DNA of 64,000 bases from Vulcanimicrobiota bacterium. GTDB taxonomy: Bacteria; Vulcanimicrobiota; Vulcanimicrobiia; Vulcanimicrobiales; Vulcanimicrobiaceae. The translations under genes were made by a program, and so were the position numbers. The DNA is taken from positions 160,001 through 224,000 of the forward strand of contig OY970223.1 in the NCBI GenBank assembly GCA_963714015.1. Reading direction: 5' to 3'. The notes below the pieces were generated by a model, which searched no databases, was not told the origin of the DNA, and saw only the letters and a program-made list of their open reading frames with translations. This document shows, piece after piece, positions 22,778 through 53,624 of the stretch (the first letter of the stretch is position 1; every line of letters begins with the position of its first letter).

Positions 22778-22948
22778 ATGGAGTACGCCGCACCGAACGT
22801 CCTGACGTCTTACCTCGTTCCGGAGCTCTCTCGGGATGCAAGGGGCTTTGCCAGCGATCCCGTCTTCTGCGATCGTGACGAGCGCGCAGACTCGGGCCAT
22901 TATCCGGACTGCACGTATACCTTCGTGCCTCGCGGCGGGTACGACTAG
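22778..22948 (+). CDS. Putative RiPP precursor P1 (56 aa): MEYAAPNVLTSYLVPELSRDARG-FASDPVFCDRDERADSGHYPDCTYTFVPRGGYD
   Basis: GGAGG RBS; YxxP leader; paralogous to three other small ORFs; immediately upstream of a JmjC gene. Confidence 0.85.
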   Translation: MEYAAPNVLTSYLVPELSRDARGFASDPVFCDRDERADSGHYPDCTYTFVPRGGYD

Positions 22949-23064: not shown

Positions 23065-24301
23065 ATGTGGAGCACTTCGCCTGCGGGGCGCGCCGCTTTG
23101 GCATGGCTGCTCACGCCGCTTTCGATTGAAGAGTTTCAATCGCAGTACTACGAGCGTGCGCCGATGCACGTTGCCCGCGACCGAGCTGGATATTACCAGC
23201 GCGTCTTCGATCTGCTCGAAGTGGAACGCATTCTCTACGCCAGCGAGCTTCACAAAGCCGATATCCGCCTGGTCAAAGACGGCGTGCCGGTGCGGCCGGA
23301 GTCATACCTGGTTCCGAAGCCGGTCTGCAAAGAGAACGAGCTCGAGCCGTATACCGATCGGGTCGACGCCGATCGGATCAGTGCGCTGTTTGCGAGCGGG
23401 TGCTCTATCGTCATGCACGACGTGCGCTCGCTTTCGGCTCCCGCGGCAAATTTCTGCCGTGAGTTGGAGATGCTCTTTCATCACCGCGTCTCGCCCAACA
23501 TGTATCTTACGCCCCCCGGTAATCAGGGCTTCGACGCGCACTACGACACGCACGATACGGCGATCGTGCAGATCGAGGGAACCAAGCACTGGCGCGTCTA
23601 CGAGTCGGCGTTTCCGCTTCCGCTGGACGATCAAACGTTCGATAAGCGCCTACACACTCCGGGAAAAGTTTGCATCGAGGCAGACCTGCGCCCCGGCGAT
23701 TTCCTCTACATCCCTCGCGGTTTTTTGCACGAGGCCAAGGCGAACGAGGACCTTTCGCTTCATTTGACGCTGGGTTTATATCCGCGTCGCTGGATCCAGG
23801 TGCTAAAGAAAGCGCTGGACGATGCCGGCGAGGCAGCGGAGAACGCGCTGCTGCGAGAGACGGCCACAGCCGAGAGCGTTCCGGCGCTGCACGCACTGCT
23901 GCAAAGCATCTTGGCGCATAGCGCGCTCTGCGCTGCCGAAGTCGCGATCGAAAACCAATTCGTGCGAGAACGGCGAAACGGGCTGGACGGCCAGATGAAT
24001 CAGATTTCCCGCTTGCGGGAGCTGGGCGAGGAATCGCTGGTTGCGCTGCGGCCGAACGTGCTGTACGAGCTGACCGAGAGCGAGAAAACCGCGCGGTTGG
24101 CGTTCTCCGGAAAGAATTTGGTGTTCGGAGCCGGCGCAAGCGGCATCATCCGGGAACTCGAAGGCGCGGCTTCGCGCGCGGGCCGGCGATCTGCTCAAGC
24201 ACGATCCCAAAGCGCTGGCGATCCTGCGTAAGCTGATTCAGGAAGGCTTTGCCGTTCAACTTCCTCCCGCGCAGCAGCGCGCAGCGCGAACGGTAGCCTA
24301 A
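23065..24301 (+). CDS. JmjC/cupin_4 (YcfD/NO66-like) Fe(II)/2OG oxygenase 1, frameshift near 24180
   Basis: YLTPPGNQGFDAHYDTHD, GTKHW and YIPRGFLHEA; C-terminus ALAILRKLIQEGFAVQ lies in a shifted frame ending TAA at 24301. Confidence 0.9.
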
Positions 24302-24556
24302 CTAAACACCGGCACGCTCGCCGAAACGTCCGTTCTGCACGTGCCGCGCAACCACCCGGGATAATACAGCCGGTATTGCAGTTTAGCCGCCGTCCGACCT
24401 TAGCGCCGGCTGCACCACATAACGCATAGTCCGATCGGCCCTCACGCCGAACATTTCACGTGTTTCTCAGGTCTTTCTCAGCAGCGGACGCCCCAGCGCA
24501 AGATGGTGCGCAGGGCGTTTGTGGCTCTCTCCACCGGTGCGTTATGCTCTGGTTGT

Positions 24557-24596
24557 GCCGGTGTATGCGCAACACCGGCGTGCTTACAAACGGAGG
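24557..24596 (+). promoter_or_regulatory. Hairpin plus AAACGGAGG RBS upstream of precursor P2
   Basis: GCCGGTGT-N7-ACACCGGC followed by GTGCTTACAAACGGAGG; possible -10 TATGCT at 24543-24548. Confidence 0.55.
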
Positions 24597-24606
24597 CACT
24601 ATTCTT

Positions 24607-24783
24607 ATGGAGTACACCGCACCCAAACTCCTGACGTCGTATGCGGTTCCAGATCTTTACAGCGATGCCAAAGGCTTTGCCAGCGACCCGCTGTATTGCG
24701 ACCCGAACCGGAGTGGCGATCTGGGTAACTACCCGAATTGCAACCCAAGCGCCAACATCGTTTGGCACCAACCGTACGACTAA
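24607..24783 (+). CDS. Putative RiPP precursor P2 (58 aa): MEYTAPKLLTSYAVPDLYSDAKG-FASDPLYCDPNRSGDLGNYPNCNPSANIVWHQPYD
   Basis: GGAGG RBS; clear paralog of P1; followed by a terminator and a JmjC gene. Confidence 0.88.
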   Translation: MEYTAPKLLTSYAVPDLYSDAKGFASDPLYCDPNRSGDLGNYPNCNPSANIVWHQPYD

Positions 24784-24812
24784 CGGATTACCGGCGGCTG
24801 GCGCCGCCATCG

Positions 24813-24850
24813 ACGAAGACCCGGCAAGTTCGTGCCGGGTCTTCGTTTTT
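24813..24850 (+). terminator. Intrinsic terminator after precursor P2
   Basis: 14-bp perfect stem ACGAAGACCCGGCA / TGCCGGGTCTTCGT followed by a T-run. Confidence 0.85.
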
Positions 24851-24964
24851 GCATGGGCTATCCGGCCTATGTGAGTTAAGTGTTCCAGGTCACGCCTACG
24901 TGAGGCCGGCGCCCGTTGGCGGCTCGCTCTTCGCGGACTACGCTAGAGGAAAAGGAGCCGACTG

Positions 24965-26191
24965 ATGGCCGCTGTTTCGCGCGATCGCACGACCCTGGCG
25001 TATCTGCTTGCGCCTCTTTCGATCGACGAATTCCTCAATGGGTACGCGCAGAGATCGCCTTTGCACGTCCGACGGGACGTCGAAGCGTATTATGAGCGAT
25101 ACTTCAACCTGAGCGAGTTCGAACGCGTCATATTCGGCTGTAAAATCACGACCGATGATCTGCGGATGATCAAGGACGGAACGCCGGTGCGTGAGGAGTC
25201 CTACATCTGGGAAGCTCCGAAAAAGTATACACCGCCTACGGTAACGTATCGCAGCAGCGTCGTGGACGCAGACCGCTTGGCCGGGCAGTTCGCGCACGGC
25301 TGCACGGTCAACATGAACAACATCGAACGCTACTCGCCTGGCGCGGCGTCGCTCGCCCGCGATCTTTCCGCGTTCTTTCAGAGCGGGGTTGGCGCAAATG
25401 TCTATCTGACGCCGCCGGGAAACCAAGGGTTCGGCGCCCACTACGACACGCACGACACAATGATCTTACAGATCGAGGGATCCAAGCGCTGGCGAGTATA
25501 CGAGCCGACGATCGAGTTGCCGCTCGACCATCAAATTTATCATCGCATCGGACATACGGTGCCCGGTCCATTGCTCTTCGAAACCGATTTGATGCCCGGC
25601 GATTTGCTCTACTTGCCGCGCGGCTTCTTTCACGAAGGGAAAGCCAACGAGGAACTCTCACTCCACGTCACATACAGCATCGCTCAGCCGCGCTGGGTGC
25701 AAGTTGCAATCGAAGCCCTCATGCGAGCCGCGGAATCGGACGTCCGCCTGCGCCGCTTCGCGGTCGATAGTCCTTCCGACGTCCCGGCCGCCCTCGCCGC
25801 GGCGTTGACCCCGGAGTTGCTGCAAGCCGCGCTGGACCGGTTGCGCGCTGAATTCCATGCCGTGTACCGCAGCGAGCTGGACGGCCAGCTGCGCCAGGTT
25901 GCGGCCTTGAACGATCTCTCGGAGCATTCGTTTATCTCCAAACGGCCTAGCGTTCTCTATGACGTCGAGGAAACTCCGAACGGCGTGCGCCTGACCTTCG
26001 CGGGCAAGACGGTCGGTCTTCCAGCCTCTGCAAAAGCCGTTGTCAACGAGCTCGACAGCGTTTCGGCCGTTGCCGTTTCCTCGCTGGTTGCGCACGATCC
26101 TAAGGCGCTCAACATCGTCCGGCGCCTCATTCAGGAAGGCTTTGCCGTTCAATTGCGGCCCGAGCGCAACCACAGCGCATCGGTTGCCTGA
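24965..26191 (+). CDS. JmjC/cupin_4 oxygenase 2
   Basis: GFGAHYDTHD, GSKRW and YLPRGFFHEG; AAAGGAG RBS. Confidence 0.92.
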   Translation: MAAVSRDRTTLAYLLAPLSIDEFLNGYAQRSPLHVRRDVEAYYERYFNLSEFERVIFGCKITTDDLRMIKDGTPVREESYIWEAPKKYTPPTVTYRSSVVDADRLAGQFAHGCTVNMNNIERYSPGAASLARDLSAFFQSGVGANVYLTPPGNQGFGAHYDTHDTMILQIEGSKRWRVYEPTIELPLDHQIYHRIGHTVPGPLLFETDLMPGDLLYLPRGFFHEGKANEELSLHVTYSIAQPRWVQVAIEALMRAAESDVRLRRFAVDSPSDVPAALAAALTPELLQAALDRLRAEFHAVYRSELDGQLRQVAALNDLSEHSFISKRPSVLYDVEETPNGVRLTFAGKTVGLPASAKAVVNELDSVSAVAVSSLVAHDPKALNIVRRLIQEGFAVQLRPERNHSASVA

Positions 26192-26213
26192 GCGGCCATG
26201 AACTGCGCATAAA

Positions 26214-27176
26214 ATGATCCCCCAATCAGCCGTGCCGATCCGTCTTATCCGCCGCGAAGGAGAAATCGGCGTCGATTGGCTCCGGCTCACTGCGTCGAAC
26301 ATGTCCGAACCGTTCTTCTTTCAGACCGTAAAACGGCTCAGGGAAGCCGGAGAACGCTACGTTTTCACCGGAGCCGACGAGTTGACGGCCTTTGCCGAAC
26401 GCTCGCACGACGTGAAGACCGCCTTTATTTTTCACGTTTCGCACTGCGGGTCGACGCTTCTCGCAAATGCGTTGAAAACCGTGGCAAATGCAGTTGTGAT
26501 CTCGGAACCGGCGTTGATGACGCCTGGTCAGCTTTTGTCGCCCTCGGCACGAAAGGCGTTCGGCCGATCTACGCTCGAGGCGCTCATCCTGGGCGCCGTC
26601 AACGCTTACGCTCTGAACGGGCCGCCAAAGCGTTACGTGTTTTTTAAGTTCATGGACTTGGCCAGCCTTGCGCTACCGACGCTGCGCCGCATGTTTCCGG
26701 CCGTCCCGTTTGTGTTCATCTATCGCGAACCCAGCCACGTCATTGCCTCGAACCTTGAGGAGGTGCCGGAAGATCTGCGTCTGAGCGCTGCGCCCGACAT
26801 TAAAGCCTTGCTCGGGAAGGATCAGGCTTGGGAGCCTTCCGCGACGGCCTGGTGGTCAGCAATATACGAGGCCGAGTGTCTGCGGGCGGCCGTAGCGCCG
26901 AACACGGTTATGGTAGACTACTGTGATCTGAACGATACCCGCGCAGTTCAGTTGATGTGCCACCTGGGAATGAACAGTGGCGACATCGACAAGGCTGCAG
27001 TCTCGACAACATTCGGGCGCTACTCGAAGGCCTCGCCAACCCAGAACATGACGTTCTCGCCGGCAGCGGACTACGAGCGCCGCCGCACTACGGCAGAACG
27101 AATGGATCCTGGAGAGTATCTCCCCGCAAGCGCAGCTTACCGGCGTCTGCGCGCGATGAAAGCGCGAATCGCATAG
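26214..27176 (+). CDS. Sulfotransferase-like (PAPS-binding P-loop) protein
   Basis: FIFHVSHCGSTLL (5'-PSB-like), ISEP and FVFIYREP..VIAS (3'-PB-like) motifs. Confidence 0.7.
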   Translation: MIPQSAVPIRLIRREGEIGVDWLRLTASNMSEPFFFQTVKRLREAGERYVFTGADELTAFAERSHDVKTAFIFHVSHCGSTLLANALKTVANAVVISEPALMTPGQLLSPSARKAFGRSTLEALILGAVNAYALNGPPKRYVFFKFMDLASLALPTLRRMFPAVPFVFIYREPSHVIASNLEEVPEDLRLSAAPDIKALLGKDQAWEPSATAWWSAIYEAECLRAAVAPNTVMVDYCDLNDTRAVQLMCHLGMNSGDIDKAAVSTTFGRYSKASPTQNMTFSPAADYERRRTTAERMDPGEYLPASAAYRRLRAMKARIA

Positions 27177-27183
27177 GAGCGTT

Positions 27184-28416
27184 ATGTGGAACTTTAAGTA
27201 TGACCAAGTGCTGCGCCGTTTCCTGACCCCGGTTCCGCTTGAACGTTTCCTGTCCGAATACTACGAGCGCAAAGTTCTGTACCTTCCGCGAAATGACGCG
27301 CAGTTTTTTCAGGGCGATTTCAGTCTGGCCGAGGTCGATCGATTCCTTCACAGCGTTGAGATTTCGGCCTCTTTTCTGCATGTCCTAAAAGACGGCGTCG
27401 GGACACCCGTCGCGGAGTATTCGCGCAACGTTCCGCGTTCCGATCCCGTTACGCATACCAGCGGCCAGGCGGCGATACTGGACCCGGGTCTCGTCGGCGA
27501 CTTTTTTGCCCGCGGCCATACGCTGCACTTCGATCATATACGTTCGTATAGTCCACAAGCAGCAGCGCTCTGCCGCGAGCTCGAGGGTTTCTTCGGCCAT
27601 CGCATCCGATGCACCGCATTCTTGACGCCGTCGCACAGTAAGGGATTTCGACTTCACTACGACGTGTACGATACATTCATTCTGCAGATTCACGGCTCCA
27701 AACGCTGGCGCGTGTCCGAAACGATGTTTCCGCTGCCGCTCGTGAGCCAGTTTTACACGCCTGACATGCAACCCGGCCCGTTGCTTCTGGATACCGTGCT
27801 GCGCCCTGGGGACTTCTTGTATATGCCGCGCGGCACGTTTCACGAAGCGGCAGCGGACGACGAAGCCTCGCTGCACTTGTCGATCGTGCCGGACCCCCTG
27901 CGATGGGAAGCGGTATTTCACCGCGTGCTGTCGGAGGTTGCGAAGGAAGAACTCCCGCTCCGTAGCAGCACGGCGACTCCGCTGAACGAGGAGGAGCTGG
28001 AAGTCATCGGAAGGCGCGTCTTTTCACGGGTGAGATCCGAAACCGCCAAGGACGAGCTGGAACTCGATTTTTACACGACGCGGCGAAACGACGGCAGCGG
28101 GCAGCTGCAGCAGATCTTGGATGCCGATCGGATCACGCCGCTTACGCAGATCTCCATTCGCGCCGGGTCGCTGTACAGCCTAAGCGAATCGGACCTGACC
28201 GCAACGGTGCGCTTTTCGGCAAAAGTCCTTCAGCTGCCGCGGAGTGCAGCGGAAATCGTCCGAGCTCTCGAATTGAACGGCCCGATGCCCGTGGCGGCGT
28301 TTCTCAAGTACGACGGAAACGCGCTTGCAATCGCGCGCACGTTGCTCAAGAGCGGCTTCTTAATGATGTCCGCGGAGCCGGAGAAGACCGGTGCAGTGCG
28401 CGTCCGATTGGGCTAA
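27184..28416 (+). CDS. JmjC/cupin_4 oxygenase 3
   Basis: GFRLHYDVYD, GSKRW and YMPRGTFHEA motifs. Confidence 0.92.
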   Translation: MWNFKYDQVLRRFLTPVPLERFLSEYYERKVLYLPRNDAQFFQGDFSLAEVDRFLHSVEISASFLHVLKDGVGTPVAEYSRNVPRSDPVTHTSGQAAILDPGLVGDFFARGHTLHFDHIRSYSPQAAALCRELEGFFGHRIRCTAFLTPSHSKGFRLHYDVYDTFILQIHGSKRWRVSETMFPLPLVSQFYTPDMQPGPLLLDTVLRPGDFLYMPRGTFHEAAADDEASLHLSIVPDPLRWEAVFHRVLSEVAKEELPLRSSTATPLNEEELEVIGRRVFSRVRSETAKDELELDFYTTRRNDGSGQLQQILDADRITPLTQISIRAGSLYSLSESDLTATVRFSAKVLQLPRSAAEIVRALELNGPMPVAAFLKYDGNALAIARTLLKSGFLMMSAEPEKTGAVRVRLG

Positions 28417-29053
28417 AGAGTACGCCGTCGCTTTAGAGGCGCGAGCAAATCCCTGGCCCCGCGCGCTGCAGCCCGGCTCCCTGGGAGCGCTCCTTTCTCC
28501 GGACGAGCGTGAGCCGGACTGCCATCGCTGGCTAGCGCATCGTATCTCCGAGGCGAGGTCGCAGCAGGCATCCCTTGTCGGCCGCGCGCAGGACGCGGTT
28601 CGCATGGAGTTCACGTTGCGCTATTCCTGGTCGATACCGACGCGTGAAGCACTCGATGCAATCGCACGCGCTCGCCGGGTGGAGTCTTAGAGGTCGGCGC
28701 CGGAAACGGCTACTGGTCGTTTCTGCTGCGCTCCCGCGGCATGCCGTTCGTTGCGGTCGACCGTTTTCCGGTTGAGAGCGGTTCAAACCCGGCCTGGAAG
28801 CTCCGATCCGCAGCCCGCTCGCGCCCAATCTCACGCGCCCTGGACGGCCGATGGAGCCGGTAAACGGAAAAGAGATCGCGACAGTACGGCAGCCGAGCCG
28901 GCGCTGCTCATCTGCTGGCTCTATTCGGCGCGCACGCTTCAAACGTATGAAGGCGGCACAATCGTGTTCGTCGGAGAGCCTCGCGGCCGTAACGATTTTC
29001 TACGAATTCTACGACGAACTGCTCGGCGAACTGGAGCGTCGCGGGGCGAGTGA
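28391..29053 (+). CDS. Class I SAM-dependent methyltransferase-like gene, several frameshifts (sequencing error or decay)
   Basis: YSWSIPTREALDAIA, then in a shifted frame VLEVGAGNGYWSFLLRSRG..VAVD, later LLICW and IVFVGE. Confidence 0.55.
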
Positions 29054-29200
29054 GCGCGATTCCGCGCTTCTTCAACTCCCACGATTCACTTTGGATTTTC
29101 CGCCGAAGAAGCGGCTCCGGACGGCCCGGCCCGATCGGCCCATTCCGGCATGATGCGCCGGTTTGATGGCTCCCGAAGGTTTCCGCGCTAAGCTGCCGCT

Positions 29201-30421
29201 ATGTGGAGCTCATCGGCAGCCGAACGGGCCGTTTTTTCTTGGCTGGTCGCGCCTCATTCCATCGACGATTTCGCCGGGCATTACGAGCGCGCGCCGTTTC
29301 ACATATCGCGCAACGAGTCCGGACGCTACGATCGATATTTCAGTTTGCAGGAGATGGAGCGCGTGCTCTTCGGGTGCGAGCTGAACGTCAAGGATCTGCA
29401 GATCATCAAAGACGGCACCGCCGCTCGCCCCGAGACCTACACTCGCTCGCATTCCGAACCGAAACATCCGCTCGATCAGGCCGCCGGTGAAATCGTGAAC
29501 CCCGACCGCGCGAGCGCCCTCTTCGCAAGCGGGTGCACGGTCGTGCTCGACAACGTCAACAAATATTCCGCGTCGATGGCGTCGCTGTGCCGCGATCTGG
29601 AGATGTTTTTCGGCTGCCACGTCAACCCGAACGTCTACATGACGCCGCCGGGAAATCAAGGCTTCGCGGTTCATTACGACACGCATGACGCGCTGATCGT
29701 CCAAATCCGCGGATCGAAGCACTGGCGCGTGTACGAGTCCGCATTCCGGCTGCCGCTCGAGCATCAATACTGGGACAAGAAACTCTACCCCGCCGGCAAT
29801 ATGGTGCTCGATATGGAGATGCGGCCCGGGGACTTCCTTTACATTCCGCGCGGCTGCCTGCACGAGGCGAAGGCCAATGACGAGCTTTCGCTGCACGTAA
29901 CCATCGGACTCTATCCGACCCTTTGGACGCACGTCGCCGCGCAAGCGCTGATGAGGGCGGCGGAGGCGCTTCCATCGCTGCGGCAGGCGGCCGACGAAGA
30001 CGCAGCGGAGGCAATCTCGGCCGAGCTCGCGCAGGTCCTTGCGCCCGCGCGTCTGACCGAAGCTCTGCGCGCAGCCCGGCGAAGCTGGCGCAACGATCGC
30101 GACAACGGCCTCGAAGGACAACTCGAACAACTCGCCGCGCTGCCGCATCTGAACGAAGCGTCGATCGTGCGCAGGCGTCCGAACCTCTCTTACGAGTGGA
30201 TGGAGACCGAGCGCGGCGTCACGCTCACGTTTTCGGGAAAAACGGTGATACTCTCCAAGTCCGCGGCCGTCGTCATTCGCAAACTCGAAGCGGCCTCCGA
30301 ACTGGACGTCGCCGCACTCTGCGAACAAGACGAAAGTGCGCTCAAAGCGGTGCGCAAGCTGATTCAGGAAGGGTTCGCGATTCAGGAGCTCGGCGGCGAA
30401 CGCCGCTATAGAATCGCGTAG
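29201..30421 (+). CDS. JmjC/cupin_4 oxygenase 4
   Basis: GFAVHYDTHD, GSKHW, YIPRGCLHEA and C-terminal KLIQEGFA. Confidence 0.92.
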   Translation: MWSSSAAERAVFSWLVAPHSIDDFAGHYERAPFHISRNESGRYDRYFSLQEMERVLFGCELNVKDLQIIKDGTAARPETYTRSHSEPKHPLDQAAGEIVNPDRASALFASGCTVVLDNVNKYSASMASLCRDLEMFFGCHVNPNVYMTPPGNQGFAVHYDTHDALIVQIRGSKHWRVYESAFRLPLEHQYWDKKLYPAGNMVLDMEMRPGDFLYIPRGCLHEAKANDELSLHVTIGLYPTLWTHVAAQALMRAAEALPSLRQAADEDAAEAISAELAQVLAPARLTEALRAARRSWRNDRDNGLEGQLEQLAALPHLNEASIVRRRPNLSYEWMETERGVTLTFSGKTVILSKSAAVVIRKLEAASELDVAALCEQDESALKAVRKLIQEGFAIQELGGERRYRIA

Positions 30422-31668: not shown

Positions 31669-31779
31669 ACTCGAAGGTTCTTTTTGCAGCCCGATACTCC
31701 CCGCATGCAAACGTCTCATTCTGCCGTAAGCCATTACGCCCATGAAGTCACGACGCCGGGGCTTTACTATCAAAAGAGC

Positions 31780-41259: not shown

Positions 41260-41375
41260 CTATAGATTTAAGAATCATAACCAAAGGCCGGCTGCGGCAT
41301 AAGAGCGGCCTGCACCAGGCCGGCAATAGGTATCTCACGACGACGCACAGCGCAGTTGGCGCGAGTCGTATGAGA

Positions 41376-41763
41376 CTAACGGCGTATGCTCAGGTGATAC
41401 TTCAGCGCTAAGCGCGCGCGCAAAAACATCGCACGAAACGGCGATCGCAGAGACGAACGGATTATGCGGCCGCCGCGCCGCACTTCGATGACGGTGCCCA
41501 GCAGCATCCGGGGGTCGACCGTTTCGCGAACGGTCACGCTCGCGTCTCCCGCCGTCAGCAGTGAGGCACCCGTTCCGACGAGCCGGTGAGCTGATCAGCA
41601 AATCGCGGTGTGCAAACACCACAACGTCACCGAAACGCGCCTTGCGATGCGGATCGACCAGCAGCTCGTCGCCGTCACGAATTCCCGGCGCCATACTCTT
41701 GCCGCTCAAACGCATGCGCCAAGGCTGCGTGGGACGTGCCATCGAGAGAACCTCGGCCAGCAT
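41376..41763 (-). CDS. S24/S26 family (signal peptidase I-like) peptidase, frameshift near 41592
   Basis: GKSMAPGIRDGD and GDVVVF, then in a shifted frame HRLV...LTAGDA; stop TAG at 41376. Confidence 0.75.
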
Positions 41764-41765
41764 TA

Positions 41766-42630
41766 CTACGCTACTGCGGATTCGGCGCCCGCGGTGAGCC
41801 GCCCGACGAGCTCGACGCTGTCCTGCGGCGCCCCTAGAGTCAAGGCGTAGAGCCGGCACTTCGAGAGCGCGTTGATCACGCGATCGACGACGCGCAGACG
41901 ATTGCTGTCGATCGTCGTTTGAATCTCGCTGCCGACGGCCATGAAAATCGCTTCCGAAAGCGGCAGTGGACGCGCGCGCGCGCTTCGTCCTCTGCCGACG
42001 ACAAAGAAGAAGGCCGTTCGCTTAGCGGTTGCCGCCCACTCGGAGGTCAGCGTTCCGGAGGGATCGACGCTCTCCCAATTCAGATCGAGCGACGTCAGTC
42101 CGAGCAGCCGCCGGGCGCCGGCGCGGACCGAAAACAGGCGCGGAAAAGCTTCGACTTCGTCGGTCGCGGTATTGACCAACGCAAACTCGTCCGACAGCGG
42201 ACGATTCTCCGGAGAGGCTGAGAATGAGCGCCATCGACGTGGTGCTCTTACCGCTCGTCGTCGGCCCGACTATCACCGCAGCCCGGTCGCCAAGCGCCAC
42301 CGCTCCGGCGTGAAAGACCACAAGTTCCGGACGCAGACGGAAAATGCGCGCGTTGATGGCAAGCATCGCGCGCCCTTCGATCGACGCGGGCGAGAGCCGC
42401 CCCGAGGCAAACGGTTCGTCGTCGAACACGCGGATGAACTCGTCGCCGATCAAAACGCCGGCGGATCGCCCGTGCGTGATAATATACGCGCTAAGTACCG
42501 GATCCGCTGTCGAACGGTTCAGCATGCGCGCATACCGGCGCTCGATAAGCTCGGTAACGCGGTCGTCGTCACACCCAATTTGGACGGGAATGCCCGCGAT
42601 CGATAGGCGTGCGATGACCGAACCCTCCGC
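41766..42630 (-). CDS. HprK-related kinase 1, frameshift near 42215; start uncertain
   Basis: FHAGAV and Walker A GPTTSGKST, then LSDEFALV...AFPR in a shifted frame. Confidence 0.78.
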
Positions 42631-42636
42631 TCAGTC

Positions 42637-42897
42637 CTACGCTACGACTTCTCGAACCAAACCTTGCTCGATGAAGACATGCATGATGTCGCTCACGTCC
42701 TGATCGACGTCGTGGCCATCCGCGTCATAACAGGTGCGCAGATAGTCGCCGAGCTCTCCAGCCGTCTTCCCCGAACAGTTCCGCAGCAAGTCGGCCGCGG
42801 TTTGATTGACCACGTGAACTTTTTCACGCGCGGAATCGTACACGAGCATCTCGGTGCCGACTTCGCGCATCTCCAAACCTTCGATCGCTTGAAACAT
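42637..42897 (-). CDS. Stand-alone PqqD family RiPP recognition element
   Basis: 86 aa with REVGTEMLVYD, VHVVNQTAA, Y.......DV and FIEQGLV pattern. Confidence 0.9.
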   Translation of the reverse strand: MFQAIEGLEMREVGTEMLVYDSAREKVHVVNQTAADLLRNCSGKTAGELGDYLRTCYDADGHDVDQDVSDIMHVFIEQGLVREVVA

Positions 42898-42906
42898 TCC
42901 TAATCC

Positions 42907-43050
42907 TTACTGATGAGTGATGTCACATTGCGGATTCGGCGGGCCTTGCTCGAAGCAGATGATCGACGCAAAGCCGGATGCATCTTTGAACAAATCGCGC
43001 ACGTCGACCGTGTCGACAATCGCCGGCCGGGCATATTCGGATTTTTGCAT
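42907..43050 (-). CDS. Putative RiPP precursor P4 (47 aa, not in ORF track): MQKSEYARPAIVDTVDVRDLFKDASG-FASIICFEQGPPNPQCDITHQ
   Basis: Translated by hand; ATG overlaps the P3 stop (TAATG); shares EY..P and DA.GFAS with P1/P2; directly upstream of PqqD. Confidence 0.88.
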   Translation of the reverse strand: MQKSEYARPAIVDTVDVRDLFKDASGFASIICFEQGPPNPQCDITHQ

Positions 43051-43151
43051 TACGAACATACCTCAGGCGGAGAGCAAAAATTGCCGGAGACTTCGGCGAA
43101 TAATGCTGAGAGATCGAAGCTGGCTACCAGAGCCGGTCTCGAATAGCGCAT
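43050..43151 (-). CDS. Putative RiPP precursor P3 (33 aa, not in ORF track): MRYSRPALVASFDLSALFAEVSG-NFCSPPEVCS
   Basis: Translated by hand; GAAAGGA RBS; YxxPxL leader aligns without gaps to P1, P2 and P4. Confidence 0.82.
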   Translation of the reverse strand: MRYSRPALVASFDLSALFAEVSGNFCSPPEVCS

Positions 43152-43248
43152 GGCGGTGGTCCTTTCCGGGCTTTCTCTTATTCTATCTGCGAGCAACCAA
43201 GGTCCAAAGTGCAGGAAGACACTTCGAGCACCGTGCCGTCGGCTTCAT

Positions 43249-44049
43249 CTACGTATAAGCCAACGAGCCTACGCGTCTGGAGTAACGCACCGAAAAAACG
43301 AAGAGCGCAAGAGCCAAAGGAATCCCCACTGCCGCAAAGCCGCCGAGAATGAGCAGGTTGCCGCCCAGCTCGGGCAAGCTCGCCCCGCGCAGCACCGCTT
43401 CGCGCAGCGCCGATAGGCCGTGCGTTATCGGAAAGACTGCCGAGAGCAGTTTCAAGGGCGCAGGCAGCGCGGCGATGGGAAAATATACGCCTCCCAGGAC
43501 GTTGGTGAGGCTCGCAACCATTGCGACGGCCGCGTCTCCCTGCTTGAACGCGATGACGGATGCGGCTGCGCAGATGCCGATCGGGGAGATGGCCAGCATA
43601 GAGAGCACGAGGACGACGGTCGCCGACAACGCGTTGGCGTGGTGGAGGTTGACCCCAAAGACCGAGGCGCCGACGATCAGGAAGAGCACGGCCTGCACCG
43701 CCGTGAAGATGAAAGCCGACGCCGCCGCGCCGGAGACGAATGCCGGCACGGAAGCCCGCGAAACCAGAATAGCCTCGAGCGTGCCCGACGATTGATCCCG
43801 GCGAATCGCGGATGCAAACGAGTGCAGCGCTACCGACTGAAATCGCGCAAACACAATGCCGATGAGCACGAACTCGAAGTACGGACCGTGAATGGATTTG
43901 AGCGCGCTCGAACTGGATCCGAAGGTCTTGCCGATAAAGAACATCATTGCGCACATGATCAGAACGGATGCGAGTTGCCCGACGACGGCAAACTTCGACA
44001 TCGTCTGAAACGCCCAATCGCGGCAGATGAACGCGGCGAGGATGCGCAT
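43249..44049 (-). CDS. ABC-2 type transporter permease
   Basis: About 6 TM segments; GTLEAIL and GGVYFP...LP..L...P.THGL motifs. Confidence 0.85.
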   Translation of the reverse strand: MRILAAFICRDWAFQTMSKFAVVGQLASVLIMCAMMFFIGKTFGSSSSALKSIHGPYFEFVLIGIVFARFQSVALHSFASAIRRDQSSGTLEAILVSRASVPAFVSGAAASAFIFTAVQAVLFLIVGASVFGVNLHHANALSATVVLVLSMLAISPIGICAAASVIAFKQGDAAVAMVASLTNVLGGVYFPIAALPAPLKLLSAVFPITHGLSALREAVLRGASLPELGGNLLILGGFAAVGIPLALALFVFSVRYSRRVGSLAYT

Positions 44050-44840
44050 CAGCCGACGCCTCCGGCGACGTGGCGGAAGTATCCGAACAAGGGATGCTCG
44101 CGCGTTCCGGCGGGCGCCTTCGCCTCGATTTCAATTGGTGTTCCGACCGCCGCGACGCGGCGTTCGTGAAGAATCGCCATTCGATCGCACATGGACCACG
44201 CCTCGTCGAGCTGATTGGTAGCGAGCAGGACGGTCTTGCGCTCCTGAACGACGAGCCGATCGCGCACCGATTGCCGGAAGTTCAACGCGGCAATCGGATC
44301 GAGGGCCTTCGTCGGCTCGTCGAGCAGCAGGATCGGCGGATCGGCCACCATCGCTCGAATCAGCGCCAGGCGCTGCTTCATGCCGGTGCTGAACGATCGC
44401 ACGCTGGAGTGCATGCGATCGGCGATGCCAAGCCACTCGGCCAGTTCCGAGATGCGCTTTTTCGAGGCACGCTCGCTCAGACCGTTGAGGCGCGCAAAAA
44501 ACGCCATGTTGTCCCAGGCGCTCAAGCGCATGTAGTACGCCCGCTCGTCGGAACTGCAAATCCCGATCGATGCGCGTGCCGGTGCGGCTTGTTTGTCGGC
44601 GTCGTATCCGAGGACGCTCACGCTGCCGGTATCGGGAATGATCAGCGTGGAGATGATCTTCAGCAGCGTCGTCTTTCCCGCCCCGTTGATTCCCAGCACG
44701 CCGAAGCATTCGCCTCTGTGGATCGTGAGCGAAACGTCGTCCAACGCCGGGCGGCGCTCGCGCCGGCGGAAGAGTTGCTTCACGCCTTGGTCGACGGGGT
44801 AGGCCTTGCTCACCCCGCGGACTTCGATCGCCTCAAGCAT
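44049..44840 (-). CDS. ABC transporter ATP-binding protein
   Basis: GINGAGKTT, FSTGMKQRL and LLLDEPT motifs. Confidence 0.92.
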   Translation of the reverse strand: MLEAIEVRGVSKAYPVDQGVKQLFRRRERRPALDDVSLTIHRGECFGVLGINGAGKTTLLKIISTLIIPDTGSVSVLGYDADKQAAPARASIGICSSDERAYYMRLSAWDNMAFFARLNGLSERASKKRISELAEWLGIADRMHSSVRSFSTGMKQRLALIRAMVADPPILLLDEPTKALDPIAALNFRQSVRDRLVVQERKTVLLATNQLDEAWSMCDRMAILHERRVAAVGTPIEIEAKAPAGTREHPLFGYFRHVAGGVG

Positions 44841-45978
44841 GATGGATGAACGGAGCCGCCGCGCGGCGCAGACCGCCCGCCAAACGCTTTGCGAGCGGCG
44901 GACGTTTGTCGAATTCTTCAAACTCCACGGAGCCGAAGTTTTGTTTGAGCAGGTGCAACCGTTCTCCGAGGCGCTCCATCCAGAAAAGACGCATCAGCGT
45001 GCGGTGGCCTTCGCCGCCGGTGAGCACCCGCGACTGTCCGATGCGCGTAGCGGAACGCGAGAGCAGCCCGCCGCGCAGTCTTTGAAGCCGCGAGAGCGCG
45101 CGCTCGTCTATGCCGGCATCGAGCAGCCAGTGCGCGAGCTCGATCGCCGGAACGGCGACTTGTGCGGTATTGCTCGCGCGCACGCGCTCTTCGAAGACGT
45201 TCCAATCGATGCCCCGGCGCAAAACTTCGGCGATGTCGACGATGCCGCGGACGTGTCCATCGAAGCCGTTCCCCCAAGCAAGGTGCACCGCGAGATGCAG
45301 CAGCTGGTCCTCCGGATCGAGAACGTGAACGGGAACGCCTGCGGCCATGGCGGCGACGGCCCGCGCGCGCATCGCCGCGACGTCGATTCGAAAAGGATTC
45401 GGCCGGCGGCCTAGATCCCAGTGCAGTTCGATGCAGAAAGACGCGCCCGGACGAGCGTAGCGCGGGAGCTGGTAGTAGTTGACGAAGTACCATTCACGCG
45501 TGTGCGGCGTCGGTTCAGAACGATAGCCGAGGTCTTCGAGCACGCGTTCGGCGCGGTCCAGATCTTCGATCGGAAGCAGAACGTCGAGATCGCAGAAAGC
45601 GCGCAAGCCGATGTCGCCGTACAAGTTCTCTACGAGCGCGACGCCTTTGAGCACTACCGGTGCCAAATCGTCGCGCGCGAAGGCCCGCAGCACTTCTCCG
45701 GCGCGCTGCAGATACACCGCGTTGAGCGCAACGGTTTTCTGTCTGGCCAAACGCAACTGCTCGCGCACCGGCTGCGGTATCGGCGCGTAGGGCGCGGCAT
45801 CGGCCGACCGCGAGAGCAGCGGCAGCAGATGATGCCGGCGCGCCTCTTGAATTACCCGTTCCCACGAATCGACGCCGCGCGCTGCCGACGCGACCGCCGA
45901 CGGATCGGCGTCCAGTCGAGCGCACGCGAGCATGAATTTTCGCTCGCCCGTGAGCGTGCGCGCTAAACGCCGGTGCAT
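44833..45978 (-). CDS. Nucleotidyltransferase family protein (NTP_transf_5 type)
   Basis: VVLKG..L...LYGD.GLR..CDLDVLL, IELHW and LLHLAVH motifs. Confidence 0.85.
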   Translation of the reverse strand: MHRRLARTLTGERKFMLACARLDADPSAVASAARGVDSWERVIQEARRHHLLPLLSRSADAAPYAPIPQPVREQLRLARQKTVALNAVYLQRAGEVLRAFARDDLAPVVLKGVALVENLYGDIGLRAFCDLDVLLPIEDLDRAERVLEDLGYRSEPTPHTREWYFVNYYQLPRYARPGASFCIELHWDLGRRPNPFRIDVAAMRARAVAAMAAGVPVHVLDPEDQLLHLAVHLAWGNGFDGHVRGIVDIAEVLRRGIDWNVFEERVRASNTAQVAVPAIELAHWLLDAGIDERALSRLQRLRGGLLSRSATRIGQSRVLTGGEGHRTLMRLFWMERLGERLHLLKQNFGSVEFEEFDKRPPLAKRLAGGLRRAAAPFIHHA

Positions 45979-45996: not shown

Positions 45997-46665
45997 TTAG
46001 ATGAGGCCTGCCCGAACCGCATGCACCGCGGCTTGAGATCTCGCCGTGATGCTGAGTTTCGAGAAGATGTGGCTCACGTGATTCTTGACGGTCTTGTCGG
46101 ACAGGCGCAGCTGCTCGCTGATCTCTTTGTTCGAGAGTCCTTGCGCGATCAGACGAATCACCTCGTTTTCTCGCTGCGTCAGTTCGTACATGTGCGCGCG
46201 GCTGGTCGACGAGCGGCGGCGCAACAGTTCACCGGCGATTCGGGGATCGACGTACGAGCCGCCGGTCGCGATGATCTTGAGCGCCCGAATGAGCTCCTTG
46301 GGAGCGATGTCCTTGATGATATAGCCGTTCGCTCCGGCCGAGAGTCCACGCTGTAAAACCTCGGGCTGCAACTGGGTGGAGAGCAGGCAAATCTTCACCG
46401 CGGGAACCTCGCGGCCGCACGATGCGATCGCCTCGTCCATCTTCAGTATCTGCCCATCGACGTCGAAAACGATCAAATCCGGTACCAACGACCGCAAAGC
46501 GACCTTCTCAAGCGACTCGGCATCGCCGACGATTTCCAGTTCGGAGTCCAGCGAGAGCAACTGACAAAGCGCCTTGGCGAAGATTCCTTGTCCGGCGACG
46601 ACTACCACTCGCGTTGGGCGGGGGGCGGCTTCCGTATCGTTGACTCTTACTGCCGTAGCGGTCAT
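45997..46665 (-). CDS. NarL/LuxR family response regulator with atypical receiver domain
   Basis: PDLIVFD, GANGYIIK and LTQRENEV...GLSNKEI...TVKNHV motifs. Confidence 0.9.
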   Translation of the reverse strand: MTATAVRVNDTEAAPRPTRVVVVAGQGIFAKALCQLLSLDSELEIVGDAESLEKVALRSLVPDLIVFDVDGQILKMDEAIASCGREVPAVKICLLSTQLQPEVLQRGLSAGANGYIIKDIAPKELIRALKIIATGGSYVDPRIAGELLRRRSSTSRAHMYELTQRENEVIRLIAQGLSNKEISEQLRLSDKTVKNHVSHIFSKLSITARSQAAVHAVRAGLI

Positions 46666-46922: not shown

Positions 46923-47837
46923 ATGATACATTCAGACCTGCGTCATGGAGTAACCGTGTCCGAAACATTACAGTATCGCATCGTCGACGTCGACATCGCC
47001 ATCGAAGCGCCCGCCGAGATTCTCTCGATCATCGTAGAGTCGTACCGGCGGTTTCCTATGACGAAGAATCGCACGCACCCGCATGTAACCGTCAGGGCGT
47101 CGCTCGTAGACGACGGTCAACTCGCCTTAACCATCGGTAACGTTCACTACAAAAACCTTTCCGCCGCTGCCGGCCATGGGCTGATCGGACTAGAACTTTC
47201 GAACGCGATCATCACCGGCGTAGCCGGGCATTCGCGTTTCATGATTCTCCACGCCGCGGCCGTCGAACGCGACGGGCAGGCGCTGTGCATCGCCGCAAGC
47301 GGCCACACCGGAAAGACGCTGCTGGCCTCGCACCTGGTTTCCCGCGGCTGGAGAGTCCTGAGCGACGAGTACGCTTTCATCGAACCGGCCGGCGGCCGTG
47401 TCGTCCCGTTTCCGAAGCTGCTGTACGTGCGATCGTCCTCACTTCCGCATATCCCGCGAAGCTTTCGCAAATGCGTTGAATCGTCGCCGTGGTACGGCAT
47501 GGGCGACTGGCCCGGTCTGGTGTTCTCCGGCGTCGATCCGGCGGACAGCTATTCCGAGGCAATTTGGTCGCAAGGCGCCCGGTTATCGCGCCTGCTCGTG
47601 ATGATTGAACGCAACGCTTCGGGACCTGCGATTACGCCCTGTAAACCTTGGTCGCTCATACCGGACCTCAACAGTTTGGTGTGGCAGCCTCCGGATTTAC
47701 TGGATGGTTTATCACGAATCGCCTCTGCGCTGCGCGGCGTCGAAGTCGCTCGAGTCGTTGCCGGAGATCCGATTCGCACCGTGAACGCGATCGAGCGCTG
47801 GGCGCTGCCCGAGAGTCAGGTTTTGCTGCATGCCTAA
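46923..47837 (+). CDS. HprK-related kinase 2
   Basis: LHAAAVERDG, SGHTGKT and GWRVLSDE...PFPK motifs; real start may be the GTG near 46956. Confidence 0.8.
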   Translation: MIHSDLRHGVTVSETLQYRIVDVDIAIEAPAEILSIIVESYRRFPMTKNRTHPHVTVRASLVDDGQLALTIGNVHYKNLSAAAGHGLIGLELSNAIITGVAGHSRFMILHAAAVERDGQALCIAASGHTGKTLLASHLVSRGWRVLSDEYAFIEPAGGRVVPFPKLLYVRSSSLPHIPRSFRKCVESSPWYGMGDWPGLVFSGVDPADSYSEAIWSQGARLSRLLVMIERNASGPAITPCKPWSLIPDLNSLVWQPPDLLDGLSRIASALRGVEVARVVAGDPIRTVNAIERWALPESQVLLHA

Positions 47838-50846: not shown

Positions 50847-52399
50847 GAGCGTTTGATCCAAAGCAGCATCGCGTCGGGACGCTCGCGCGGAAGCACGATC
50901 GGTATCTGACGCACGCAACAGCCGACGGAATCGGAAAGTTCGAGCGCGTCGTGCATGTCGCCCAACAGATAAGCGTTCGTCCGTAGCGGTATCGAGGATG
51001 CGTTCTGCGCGACAAGCTGCATTCGCACGTCCGGAGAAAGATAGAACGCCAAATCGAGCGCGTCCGCCCAGCGACCCGAGGATTGCGGAACGATCACGAG
51101 CGCATTGCGTGTCGCGTCGAGGGGCTTGCTGTCCGCAAGGACCCAGCCGTTGAAGTCGTTGTCCCACCACACCGGCGCGCGCAGGCCCGTATAGCCGCAG
51201 AGCGCTCCTGCCGCCATGAGCAGCGCTGCGGCGCCGATCCAAGCCGAACGCGGCGCGCCCTCATGCCTGCGGATCTCGAAGGCAAGGTATCCGGCGACGC
51301 ATACGATGAGCATCAGCCAGATCGGCGTCCCGTACCGCGGCACGGTCGAGCGATGATCGTGCAGCACGAGGTCCGAGATGACGAGCGCAAGTACGGGAAC
51401 CGCCAGGAGCGCCGCGATCATCGTCCGATTTGCTGCCCCGCTTCGCGCGACGCACCAGTAGATCGCCGCACAGACCAGCAGCGCCAAAGGCAAGAGCATG
51501 AGCGCAGCTTTACCGTGCGCGTACTGCAGGTCGAAAAAGGTCGCGCCCGCTTCGAACGTCCAGCTCTTCAAGTACCAGACCAGCGGCCAAGCACCGGCAC
51601 TCCACGAAAGCGAATCCGCTAAGCCGGTGCGCGTGCGAGCGATGACGACCGCCCACGGAATGAATGCGGCAATGGCGATGCAGGCCGCTATGGCGAAGCG
51701 GCGCAGATCGGAGGCGCGCAACCGAAACGCGGCGTAAACGGCATGCGCGGCAAGCGTAATCACAAAAAGGCCGTCGGTGTACATTCCCAACACCGCGACG
51801 ACGCCGTACAGAATCCACCACCGCGGCCTTCCTGTCCGCTGCGCCCGCAATAGCGCCGCGGTTGCGACTGCGAATAGCAGCGCCCAGAGACTATATTCCT
51901 TTGCCTGCTGCGAATACACGATCAGCATCGGCGAGACCGCCGCAAGTGAAAAGCCGAGCAGCGCCGCGAGTCTATTTCCGAAGATCTCCAAGCACAGCCA
52001 GCCCGCGGCAAACGGGACGAGCAATCCGAAGATCAGCGCCGGCAAGCGCAGGCTGACGATCGACGTGCCCGCAATACGCGTCCATAACGCGGAGACCACG
52101 TAGTACAGCGGCGGATGTTTCGCGTCTTCAGCGGCAAGCGACGAGACCGTCTTACTAATAGGCTCCCGCTCGCTGCTGCGCCCGGCGAACGCCAGCACTT
52201 CAGCCGCAGTCGCGGTTCGGCCTTGCAACGCATCCAAGAATTCGCTGCGGGTGTGGCCCGCAATGCGAAGAGCGGTGACGGCTTCGTCGCTCCAAAAGAG
52301 GCGCGAATGTTCGCCGGCGACGCGCAGCGCGAAACCGCCCAGCGCAAATGCCGCGCAGATTGCGACCAGCGCGAAGAGCGCGGGATTAAGCCGCGGCAC
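50843..52399 (-). CDS. GT-C (GT39/PMT-like) membrane glycosyltransferase
   Basis: FWSDE, HPPLYY, RLP and YSQQAKEYS motifs; multi-TM. Confidence 0.8.
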   Translation of the reverse strand: MPRLNPALFALVAICAAFALGGFALRVAGEHSRLFWSDEAVTALRIAGHTRSEFLDALQGRTATAAEVLAFAGRSSEREPISKTVSSLAAEDAKHPPLYYVVSALWTRIAGTSIVSLRLPALIFGLLVPFAAGWLCLEIFGNRLAALLGFSLAAVSPMLIVYSQQAKEYSLWALLFAVATAALLRAQRTGRPRWWILYGVVAVLGMYTDGLFVITLAAHAVYAAFRLRASDLRRFAIAACIAIAAFIPWAVVIARTRTGLADSLSWSAGAWPLVWYLKSWTFEAGATFFDLQYAHGKAALMLLPLALLVCAAIYWCVARSGAANRTMIAALLAVPVLALVISDLVLHDHRSTVPRYGTPIWLMLIVCVAGYLAFEIRRHEGAPRSAWIGAAALLMAAGALCGYTGLRAPVWWDNDFNGWVLADSKPLDATRNALVIVPQSSGRWADALDLAFYLSPDVRMQLVAQNASSIPLRTNAYLLGDMHDALELSDSVGCCVRQIPIVLPRERPDAMLLWIKRS

Positions 52400-53624
52400 G
52401 GCCGCCGGAGAGAAGCGGCCGCAGCCACTCCGTCATGTGCAGAATGTACCAATCCCGGCGGAAAGCCTCGCCGTTGCGCGATCCGGCACGGGCGGCGCCC
52501 TGCTCCACTGCAATCTCGAGCGGCATGTCCTGCAATGCCAGTTCGAGCAAAACGCCGGGGCGATCGCTCGAGAACGGAATACCGCGCAGGCGGACGATTT
52601 GTTCGAAGAGTTCGCCGAGCTTCGCTGCCGGACTTGCCTTCGGAAAACGATCGGCGGTGAGGCTCAAGGCCACGGGGCGATCGGGCGCACTGCTCACGAG
52701 CGCGAGGAAGAAACGCAGGTCCGGCTCCCGCACGGCGTTCATTGCATCCTTGACGAACCGCAGCCTAACGCGTTGTGAGAGTGCCGAATCGAGCACAGCG
52801 GCCAGCTCTCGATGATGCGGTGCGATGTGTGCGATCAAACCGGAGAGGATCGAAGGCTCGGTCCCGCTGCCTCCGGCCTCAAGCCGCTGGCGAACAATCC
52901 GCTGCGCCGCCCATAGATCGCCTGAATCGATCAGTCGCAGCGCTTCCCGCTCGTACAAGCGAGGATCCGCTTTGTACAGCGTGCGCAGCAGGGCCAGGTG
53001 CGTGCGCAGCGGTTCCATTTCAAATTGCGGATCGAACGCCAGACCCGGAGTGATAAAGTTATACGGCTCGTACTTGAGGTCGTGCAGCGTCCGGATGACC
53101 AGGCTGATCGAAGGCGCGTCCAAATGCAGAAGCGCGTGTATAAACTTTCCGCCTTGTTCGATCGTCCGCACGTCCCCCGCGCGCAGATGTTCCGCACGTT
53201 TGAATCGCAGATCGCCCAGCGCCAGCTGCGGCGTGACGCGCTCGTGCCGATCGAAGGTGTACTCCGCGTGAACGCTCGATCCCCGAACGACGCCCCAGGC
53301 TCCGGCAAACTGGTGCTGATGGATCGCCGTGGGAGCGTCGATCCAGAACAGCAACTGCATCACCATCATATCCGTGCGGTACACGAAGACCGGCGGCTGA
53401 GCGTTGAATCCGAGCCGCTGGGGAACGCCGCAATGTCCGAAAATCCAATCGGTTATTCGATCGAGCGGGATCGACCGCCAGTCGCCGTTTTCGAGCAAAG
53501 CTTCCTGCGCGATGCGCGGGAAGAGGGCTGCATCAAACGCACAGGCCTCCCAACGCCGCGAAACCGCGTCGCCGAGAGACCTGAAGACGTCGAGGTCTTC
53601 TGAAACCGGGGCGGAAGCCGTCAT
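52386..53624 (-). CDS. Cupin (cysteine-dioxygenase-like) domain protein with a helical C-terminal extension
   Basis: FW....TAIHQHQFAGAWGVVRG ... FIHALLH metal-binding pattern. Confidence 0.55.
   Translation of the reverse strand: MTASAPVSEDLDVFRSLGDAVSRRWEACAFDAALFPRIAQEALLENGDWRSIPLDRITDWIFGHCGVPQRLGFNAQPPVFVYRTDMMVMQLLFWIDAPTAIHQHQFAGAWGVVRGSSVHAEYTFDRHERVTPQLALGDLRFKRAEHLRAGDVRTIEQGGKFIHALLHLDAPSISLVIRTLHDLKYEPYNFITPGLAFDPQFEMEPLRTHLALLRTLYKADPRLYEREALRLIDSGDLWAAQRIVRQRLEAGGSGTEPSILSGLIAHIAPHHRELAAVLDSALSQRVRLRFVKDAMNAVREPDLRFFLALVSSAPDRPVALSLTADRFPKASPAAKLGELFEQIVRLRGIPFSSDRPGVLLELALQDMPLEIAVEQGAARAGSRNGEAFRRDWYILHMTEWLRPLLSGGRAAA

Follow-up and report, generated by a model that had tools for sequence, protein, structure and literature searches.

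Two short tandem reading frames directly upstream of a discrete PqqD-family RRE gene, ORF1 and ORF2, are interpreted here as precursors of a linear phosphopeptide pathway that resembles the LPP pathway (LppA/K/B/S/D/N) of Paenibacillus alginolyticus (Popov et al., Nat Commun 2026, PMC13381572; PDB 9X8Z). They lie on the minus strand of the window, by which we mean the whole 64,000-nucleotide stretch of Vulcanimicrobiota DNA that was analyzed. We put the probability of this interpretation at roughly 70%. It draws on gene content, conservation, selection, motifs, co-occurrence, and the LPP precedent. For a common cassette of a soil phylum whose members are mostly uncultured, it would supply putative substrates, a probable phosphosite, and a proposed site of leader cleavage (after A/V-x-G).

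Two Tandem Precursor ORFs Precede the RRE Gene

ORF1 (43050..43151, minus) encodes 33 amino acids from an ATG at 43151, with the sequence GAAAGGA sitting 8 nt before it. In the sequence TAATG, its stop codon (TAA, 43052-43050) shares a base with the start codon of ORF2 (42907..43050, minus; 47 amino acids), and the PqqD/RRE gene starts with an ATG at 42897, 9 nt past the ORF2 stop. An earlier note on this DNA had described two tandem ORFs with this ribosome binding site, coupling, and spacing; every element was confirmed, and both of its translations were exact. Its description of the pair as hidden was correct for ORF1, the exact sequence of which had no match in the protein collection, but not wholly for ORF2, the 47-residue sequence of which is present there in identical form, unnamed, from an NCBI source. 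The ORF1 leader ends in V-S-G and would be followed by a 10-residue core, NFCSPPEVCS, with serine at +4 (x-aromatic-x-Ser). The ORF2 leader ends in A-S-G, and the predicted 21-residue core starts with F-A-S (Ser at +3) and contains two conserved cysteines.

The hexamer coding score was +14.2 for ORF2 and -5.4 for ORF1, the other frames of which scored -11 to -20. Searching this genome with a leader-only profile gave four matches of 23.6-27.7 bits, and the best match in the reversed genome reached 15.9 bits. A 319-nt short-read contig of run X1, perhaps the source sample, was identical to positions 43002-43320. We consider it highly probable that ORF1 and ORF2 are real precursors.

Four of four orthologous cassettes preserve both ORFs uninterrupted and in unchanged order and position: those of G140, G142, and G109, and one on a JGI metagenome contig pair (L143/L144) that represents one organism and was counted as one cassette. 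Absence from orthologous loci, or interruption by stop codons, which the earlier note had named as evidence against its proposal, was seen in none of them. Selection at the codon level pointed the same way, with pN/pS below 1 for both ORFs. Over the six pairs of four loci (window, G140, G142, G109), the values were 0.32-0.64 for ORF1, 0.34-0.66 for ORF2, and 0.19-0.48 for PqqD; they are uncorrected, and synonymous sites are near saturation. The core start N-F-C-S of ORF1 is common to all five cassettes (the window and the four orthologous ones) and reads as the aromatic-x-Ser of the ORF2 type, shifted by one residue. Upstream of ORF1, a non-coding element, TCTTCCTGCACTTTGG ... TAGAAT/TACAAT (43175..43216, minus), recurs in four of the five loci and is a promoter candidate by conservation only; a sigma-70 consensus scan of 41000-43500 called no promoter.

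The unpublished genome G109 contributes to the four orthologous cassettes, the four pN/pS loci, alignments A1, A2, and A4, and the JmjC-bearing genomes described below. Two other unpublished genomes (G021 and G041) add rows to the JmjC-proximity, cassette-content, and core-start counts, and four more (G028, G029, G096, and G337) enter tallies only. The conclusions stand without the unpublished genomes, and three orthologous cassettes then remain.

Gene Content of the Cassette

The gene order on the minus strand is LuxR-type regulator, NTP_transf_5, ABC ATPase, ABC-2 permease, ORF1, ORF2, RRE, HprK-like kinase 1, S24/S26 peptidase, and a lipoprotein-like gene, beyond which lie Wza, a priming transferase, UDP-glucose dehydrogenase, Wzz, and Wzy. 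Kinase 2, an acetyltransferase, a flippase, and a GT2 gene are encoded in the opposite orientation. The RRE (42637..42897, minus; PF05402, 36.4 bits) and the NTP_transf_5 protein (44833..45978, minus; PF14907, 179 bits, DLD motif) are the sole matches to their respective families in the genome. Asn31 and Asp67 of the RRE were invariant in 19/19 and line up by eye with Asn33 and Asp70 of LppB. The SpI-like S24/S26 peptidase (41376..41763, minus; PF00717 match) carries GxSM, AHR, and GD motifs. The first two of these keep the serine and histidine of LppS Ser29/His68; at the position of LppS Asp93, alignment by eye led either to a glutamate one residue later or to no acid.

Export would fall to the ABC-2 permease (43249..44049, minus) and the separate ABC ATPase (44049..44840, minus), the best NCBIfam match of which was DrrA, under its cut-off. 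The LuxR-type response regulator (45997..46665, minus) is kept in orthologous cassettes. HprK-like kinase 2 (46923..47837, plus; GHTGKT and SDE motifs) is 24% identical to kinase 1 of an orthologue. HprK-like kinase 1 itself (41766..42621, minus) shows Walker A GPTTSGKST and an SDE motif. No ATG, GTG, or TTG was found in frame between the RRE stop and its conserved N terminus. Conservation of kinase 1 begins at an ATC preceded by AGGA/GGAGG in 4/4 loci (42621 minus in the window, L036, L037, and L143), and a non-canonical ATC start is possible.

Several neighboring features were also recorded. The lipoprotein-like gene (40270-41259) encodes 329 residues of no known family and comes immediately after the peptidase gene in every orthologous cassette. 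The genes at 53694-55358 and 55496-56668 encode two secreted paralogues that weakly resemble glycoside hydrolase family 5. Far from the cassette, an orphan second tandem pair of HprK-like kinase genes lies at G000:C1:3236348-3238122 (L145), with both RRE and family precursor absent nearby.

Two Interrupted Genes in the Assembly

In this assembly, a +1 frameshift interrupts kinase 1 near 42216, and another interrupts the peptidase near 41593. Because just 2 of 55 conserved control genes were split, two adjacent breaks need explaining. One explanation is that the cassette is decaying in this strain, with kinase 1 and the peptidase reduced to pseudogenes and the ORFs real but left unprocessed; the two breaks, together with a third in the UDP-glucose dehydrogenase gene, would fit such decay when set against the control rate. 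However, a single contig of run X1 at each break (depths 2.4x and 2.55x) is one base shorter than the assembly, at 42216 and, with a loose end, at 41593; both genes are intact in the orthologues L036 and L143, and other low-contig-number assemblies (G140 and G142) are broken in different genes. Because the short-read contigs lack the extra base and the orthologues are intact, the breaks are read as probable assembly errors, which the X1 contigs favor without proving it, and decay of the cassette appears improbable.

Other apparent frameshifts were noted in the UDP-glucose dehydrogenase gene (37236-38547), at the C terminus of the first JmjC gene (23098-24290), and in a gene at 7174-8011, which we take to be pantothenate-synthetase-like.

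A Precursor Family in Vulcanimicrobiota

A leader pattern applied to RRE-centered loci gave 24 seed peptides, which together with two more from the window formed alignment A1 (26 peptides); one spurious pattern match and one near-duplicate were left out. The A1 search yielded 103 representatives at 50% identity, and 118 unique peptides were obtained after one 675-residue match had been removed and A1 duplicates had been merged. Their family leader is YxxPx[VI][LI]A[ST][FY]D[AV]x[ED]LLGEAxG. Position -3 is occupied by alanine in 105 and by valine in 12 of the 118 (117 together), and position -1 by glycine in 96. A small-x-small pattern is the recognition signal of type I signal peptidases.

The cores have a median length of 15 residues, and 117 of the 118 contain a serine somewhere. 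Serine stood at core position +3 in 55 peptides (47%), compared with a mean of 18.8 and a maximum of 34 in 2000 shuffles, an enrichment that is biased upward because the profile includes core columns. Among the 24 seeds, which had been selected by a leader-only pattern, Ser3 was present in 14. Many cores place G-S or G-N-G-S further down.

Searches of Pfam and NCBIfam assigned no family to the 26 A1 peptides at E up to 1, and the 49 homologues carried no Pfam label and at most the name "hypothetical protein." The best ESM Atlas matches of a relative, P0013, scored 0.87-0.88 (unnamed clusters) and 0.85 (lasso-leader cluster DUF5972); they are leads only because all are under 0.9. A search of the open-access literature returned no description of this precursor family in this phylum, and the strings "Eremiobact," "Vulcanimicrob," and "WPS-2" had 0 occurrences in six of the seven supplements of PMC13381572, those that the search covered. 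Judged by their sequences, ORF1 and ORF2 belong to an unnamed precursor family of Vulcanimicrobiota (Eremiobacterota).

The peptide was present in 35 of 201 genomes of the family. It occurred in 27 of the 41 genomes with this RRE type versus 8 of the 160 without it, an association that is partly circular because the seeds were taken from RRE loci. PF14907 scored over its cut-off in 32/35 peptide-positive genomes versus 16/166 others. No P value is attached to the co-occurrence because related genomes are not independent. At the level of loci, homologous cassettes had been proposed in the earlier note as the place to look for short YxxP ORFs upstream of PqqD genes; 28 of 39 RRE-centered loci were found to hold a peptide, as were 17 of the 20 loci that had been fetched on an RRE match alone. 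The 28 peptide-plus-RRE loci contained a kinase in 27 cases, NTP_transf_5 in 26, an S24 peptidase in 24, and an ABC-2 permease in 22, with kinase, S24/S26 peptidase, and NTP_transf_5 all present in 24. Within the phylum, the profile matched 3 of 21 families (30/206, 2/3, and 7/22 genomes) and none of the 69 genomes in the other 18 families. Related-locus searches, which probed the range beyond the phylum only weakly, returned two loci in genome contigs and two in metagenomes.

The earlier note had put the ORFs forward as direct substrate candidates. This proposal gained support from the YxxP motif, the conservation of the RRE asparagine and aspartate, and the co-occurrence of peptide and cassette, and ORF1 and ORF2 are very likely substrates of the RRE/kinase/peptidase/NTP-transferase cassette.

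The YxxP leader would also suit lasso-peptide precursors whose cyclase is encoded elsewhere. With a core starting at glycine, ORF2 could geometrically form a Gly1-Glu9 ring; B2-like PF13471 proteins occur in 24/201 relatives, and the genome (3.56 Mb) is 89.6% complete. Yet the genome contained no match to PF13471 (B2 peptidase), and no cyclase was found near the cassette: the two PF00733 matches of the genome (2.48 Mb, a 638-residue frame; 1.42 Mb, weak) lie more than 1 Mb away, and no Asn_synthase occurred among 56 scanned cassette-neighbor proteins. The peptides themselves speak against it as well, with threonine at -2 in 0/118 and only 23-32 of 118 combining an acidic residue at ring position 7, 8, or 9 with a tail of sufficient length. 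A lasso identity is thus largely refuted and hardly to be expected.

Variants of the family and of its setting were observed. In L097, L098, and L126 (G015), L100 and L101 (G346), and L104 (G326), precursor copies stood alone or in tandem, and the fetched loci contained no cassette gene; several genomes hold 4-6 precursor copies. Four peptides (P0006, P0077, P0089, and P0091) share the leader shape, but in them the leader ends in A-x-A/V and is followed by a Cys-led core; among them are a tandem double precursor and a peptide with an SDRDLK tail. A sister cassette in L086-L091 (G044, G015, G099, G198, G142, and G072) comprises a longer PqqD-like RRE, an HprK-like kinase, one or two GT2 genes, a B2-like PF13471 protein, and NTP_transf_5; no lasso cyclase was seen in it, and no precursor of this family lay inside.

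Satellite Precursors and Candidate Tailoring Enzymes

The finding in the earlier note included neither the S24/S26 leader peptidase nor two further precursors at about 20 kb from the cassette. ORF3 (22778..22948, plus; 56 amino acids) and ORF4 (24607..24783, plus; 58 amino acids) have a leader of the same family and cores that start with F-A-S and contain two cysteines. A putative satellite tailoring module (23098..30421, plus) comprises four JmjC oxygenases (PF08007, NO66/YcfD-like) at 23098, 24965, 27184, and 29201 and a sulfotransferase-like gene at 26232.

With the JmjC protein encoded at 29201 as query, 44 of 201 genomes gave matches at E up to 1e-30. The matches fell into two groups with a gap between them, one of 14 places in 6 genomes (E ≤ 2e-58) and one at 8e-47 or worse; all 6 genomes with a close JmjC carry the peptide. 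Ten of the 79 scored peptides lay within 600 bp of such a JmjC gene, and all 10 had an F-x-S start and at least two cysteines. Two more JmjC neighbors scored too low to pass the threshold. The L117 peptide, one of the two, lacks cysteine, and a strict two-Cys rule for JmjC neighbors was rejected on this single failure. At core position 1 or 2, [FYM]-x-S was found in 20/20 peptides from 7 JmjC-bearing genomes versus 0/58 from 36 others (16/16 versus 0/56 when the unpublished genomes were left out). The apparent tie between an aromatic/Met-x-Ser start and JmjC-bearing genomes is a lead only, because the pattern was defined post hoc and the clusters may share one origin.

A 412-residue protein (52386..53624, minus) is predicted to fold as a thiol-dioxygenase-like cupin (invariant His102, His104, and His163) with an added helical domain; pLDDT was 83.7 with an alignment and 45.5 from the single sequence. 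In Foldseek, it came closest to 3-mercaptopropionate dioxygenases and cysteine dioxygenases (E about 4e-6, identity 11-18%). G140 and G142 encode homologues of the protein next to peptides of the family and JmjC genes. The JmjC enzymes and the thiol-dioxygenase-like protein are candidate new peptide-modifying enzymes with their putative substrates adjoining.

The cupin is rare (8 matches) and neighbors a GT-C/PMT_2 glycosyltransferase gene (50843-52399); both recur beside peptides and JmjC genes in G140 (L094 and L095). A choline/carnitine acyltransferase-family gene (21120-22670) lies directly upstream of ORF3, with an FkbM methyltransferase gene (18986-19915) nearby. A PQQ-type beta-propeller protein (30406-31920) also occurs beside pairs of peptide and JmjC genes in L092, L094, and L103.

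Proposed Pathway

In the LPP-like pathway that we propose, the discrete RRE would bind the YxxP-x-hydrophobic leader, as suggested by the motif and the LPP precedent. An HprK-like kinase would (poly)phosphorylate the conserved core serine, that is, Ser3 in ORF2 and Ser4 in ORF1. The SpI-like S24/S26 peptidase, assisted by the RRE, would cut after A/V-x-G, 21 residues after the tyrosine, a site deduced from conservation only. The products would be linear cores of 10 (ORF1) and 21 (ORF2) residues, with the Cys pair probably closed by a disulfide. Their calculated monoisotopic masses without modification are about 1081.42 Da (ORF1) and 2344.06 Da (ORF2), or 2 Da lower with the disulfide. On the weaker precedent of PsmN, NTP_transf_5 might cap the phosphoserine with one or more hexoses or make the donor. 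Finally, the ABC-2 transporter would export the product. Since no other RRE or NTP_transf_5 was found in the genome, ORF3 and ORF4 are probably matured by this core as well, and the JmjC oxygenases would then tailor both further.

A predicted complex of the RRE with ORF2 scored 0.40, versus 0.00 for the best of three controls. The runs agreed in at least 92% of contacts, and partner pLDDT was at least 54. Of 157 solved complexes, 116 reached the mark, as did 2 of 215 mismatches; only 18 of the solved complexes, but both mismatches, did so at 0.60 or under. The prediction lends weak support to the pairing, and it may pass through likeness to solved lasso RRE-leader complexes.

Several observations count against the LPP-like reading. 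Kinase 1 and the peptidase are frameshifted, and kinase 1 is without a usual start codon. The ORF1 serine is at +4 instead of +3, and the coding score of ORF1 is negative; within the family, Ser3 is found in 47%. In addition, an equivalent of LppS Asp93 is not clearly kept, and LppN was inactive in the LPP study.

The ORFs might instead be regulatory or signaling peptides, or kinase inhibitors, that bind the RRE and are not released as modified products. The LuxR-type regulator kept beside the cassette would be in line with this, as would the short and hypervariable cores and the lone copies far from enzyme genes (L097, L098, and L100-L102). The conserved A-x-G site, the core serine, and the dedicated peptidase and exporter nevertheless point to processing and export, and we give this explanation very little weight. 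A signaling role of the mature product would be compatible with processing and export.

The phosphopeptide could also serve as primer or carrier for a surface polysaccharide, with NTP_transf_5 adding the first sugar, glycosyltransferases extending it, and the glycopeptide being exported and displayed. In the window and in three orthologues, a complete Wzy-type EPS locus surrounds the cassette, and co-location with capsule loci is noted by the LPP authors (PMC13381572). The PsmN-dependent hexose-phosphate provides a precedent (PMC6993621), an S24-NTP_transf_5 fusion is found in 11 of 12 relatives (those where the motif pattern caught the called gene), and the sister cassette places two GT2 genes between kinase and NTP_transf_5. 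On the other hand, when the EPS proteins of the window served as queries, just 11 of the 28 peptide-plus-RRE loci gave an EPS-gene match; the EPS setting given in the earlier note holds for this locus but is not obligatory. The EPS locus moreover encodes a priming transferase, a flippase, Wzy, and Wza of its own, and the best matches of the ABC ATPase are of the DrrA/NodI types. A priming role is thus judged unlikely.

A broader and speculative model, which we regard as doubtful, is a two-tier RiPP system, of a type absent from the literature that was searched, in which one RRE/kinase/SpI/NTP-transferase core would serve four precursors over 20 kb. The aromatic-x-Ser two-Cys branch would be oxidized by a dedicated JmjC subclade (perhaps at Phe1, as with CzlI) and by a peptide-acting thiol dioxygenase, and might be sulfated. 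The phosphoserine-sugar would anchor a glycan from the polysaccharide locus, giving a peptide-primed surface glycoconjugate.

Comparison with Known Systems

The best NCBIfam label for kinase 2, and one label for the RRE, came from the HPr-rel-A system (HprK-related kinase A plus PqqD chaperone). The two kinases matched TIGR04352 at E 1.6e-4 and 5e-17, under the cut-off. Membership in this system (TIGR04352/TIGR04353) was rejected because the scores, 61.8 of 200 bits for kinase 2 and 18.7 of 35 bits for the RRE, are far under the cut-offs.

JmjC enzymes are known from two RiPP pathways: CzlI hydroxylates Phe to Tyr (PMC11575548), and BipG is an ornithine hydroxylase (PMC12707348). As in those pathways, a JmjC Fe/2OG gene adjoins a precursor gene here, whereas the pathway classes differ.

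The phosphorylated lasso peptides paeninodin (PadeK) and pseudomycoidin (PsmK/PsmN) share with the cassette a discrete RRE and an HprK-like kinase plus NTP_transf_5 acting on a peptide serine, and the addition of one or two hexoses to the phosphoserine of pseudomycoidin depends on PsmN (PMC6993621). In contrast to these systems, neither macrolactam cyclase nor B2 peptidase accompanies the present cassette, and the conserved serine is near the N terminus of the core, not at its C terminus; 8 of 118 cores end in serine.

The closest parallel is the LPP pathway. There, the HprK kinase LppK phosphorylates Ser3 in the core of a YxxP-leader precursor up to four times, the RRE uses a conserved Asn and Asp to hold YxxP, the SpI-like peptidase LppS removes the leader only when the RRE is present, and the NTP transferase LppN showed no activity (PMC13381572). 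The clusters hold 1-3 precursors each, often lie beside capsular polysaccharide loci, and are described as restricted to Bacillota (PMC13381572). The statement in the earlier note that such cassettes are usually annotated with no substrate peptide has been overtaken by that work, which reported both the precursors and their processing. Shared with LPP are the discrete RRE with Asn/Asp, the YxxP leader, the HprK-like kinase, a putative SpI-like peptidase, the NTP transferase, an exporter, 1-3 precursors per cluster, a serine near core position 3, a frequent polysaccharide-locus setting, and the dispensability of a lasso cyclase. The RRE profile matched 9X8Z weakly (E 0.031).

The two systems also differ. 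The leader tyrosine is at -21 and the leader ends in A/V-x-G here, whereas LPP has Tyr at -16 and ends in F-E-T. The LPP consensus YxxPxVLxHQxIxFETxxS (Px9Fx[T/A]) was found in full in 0 of 118 peptides, and none had FET; only YxxPx[VI][LI] and the core serine are shared. An ABC-2 permease with a separate ATPase takes the place of the MsbA-like transporter of LPP. Two kinases are often present (17/28 loci with at least two kinase segments, a count inflated by frameshifts), and the peptidase-NTP-transferase fusion, the Cys-pair cores, and the JmjC, cupin, and sulfotransferase satellites are further features that set the system apart. Together with the short cores, the fusion offers a compact test system for the final product of LPP and the role of NTP_transf_5. 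Because the leader consensus is met in 0/118, an MsbA-type exporter is absent, and the host belongs to Vulcanimicrobiota and not to Bacillota, the cassette is classed, on its sequence, as a variant of LPP and not as a member, and the LPP logic would extend beyond Bacillota with a different leader code.
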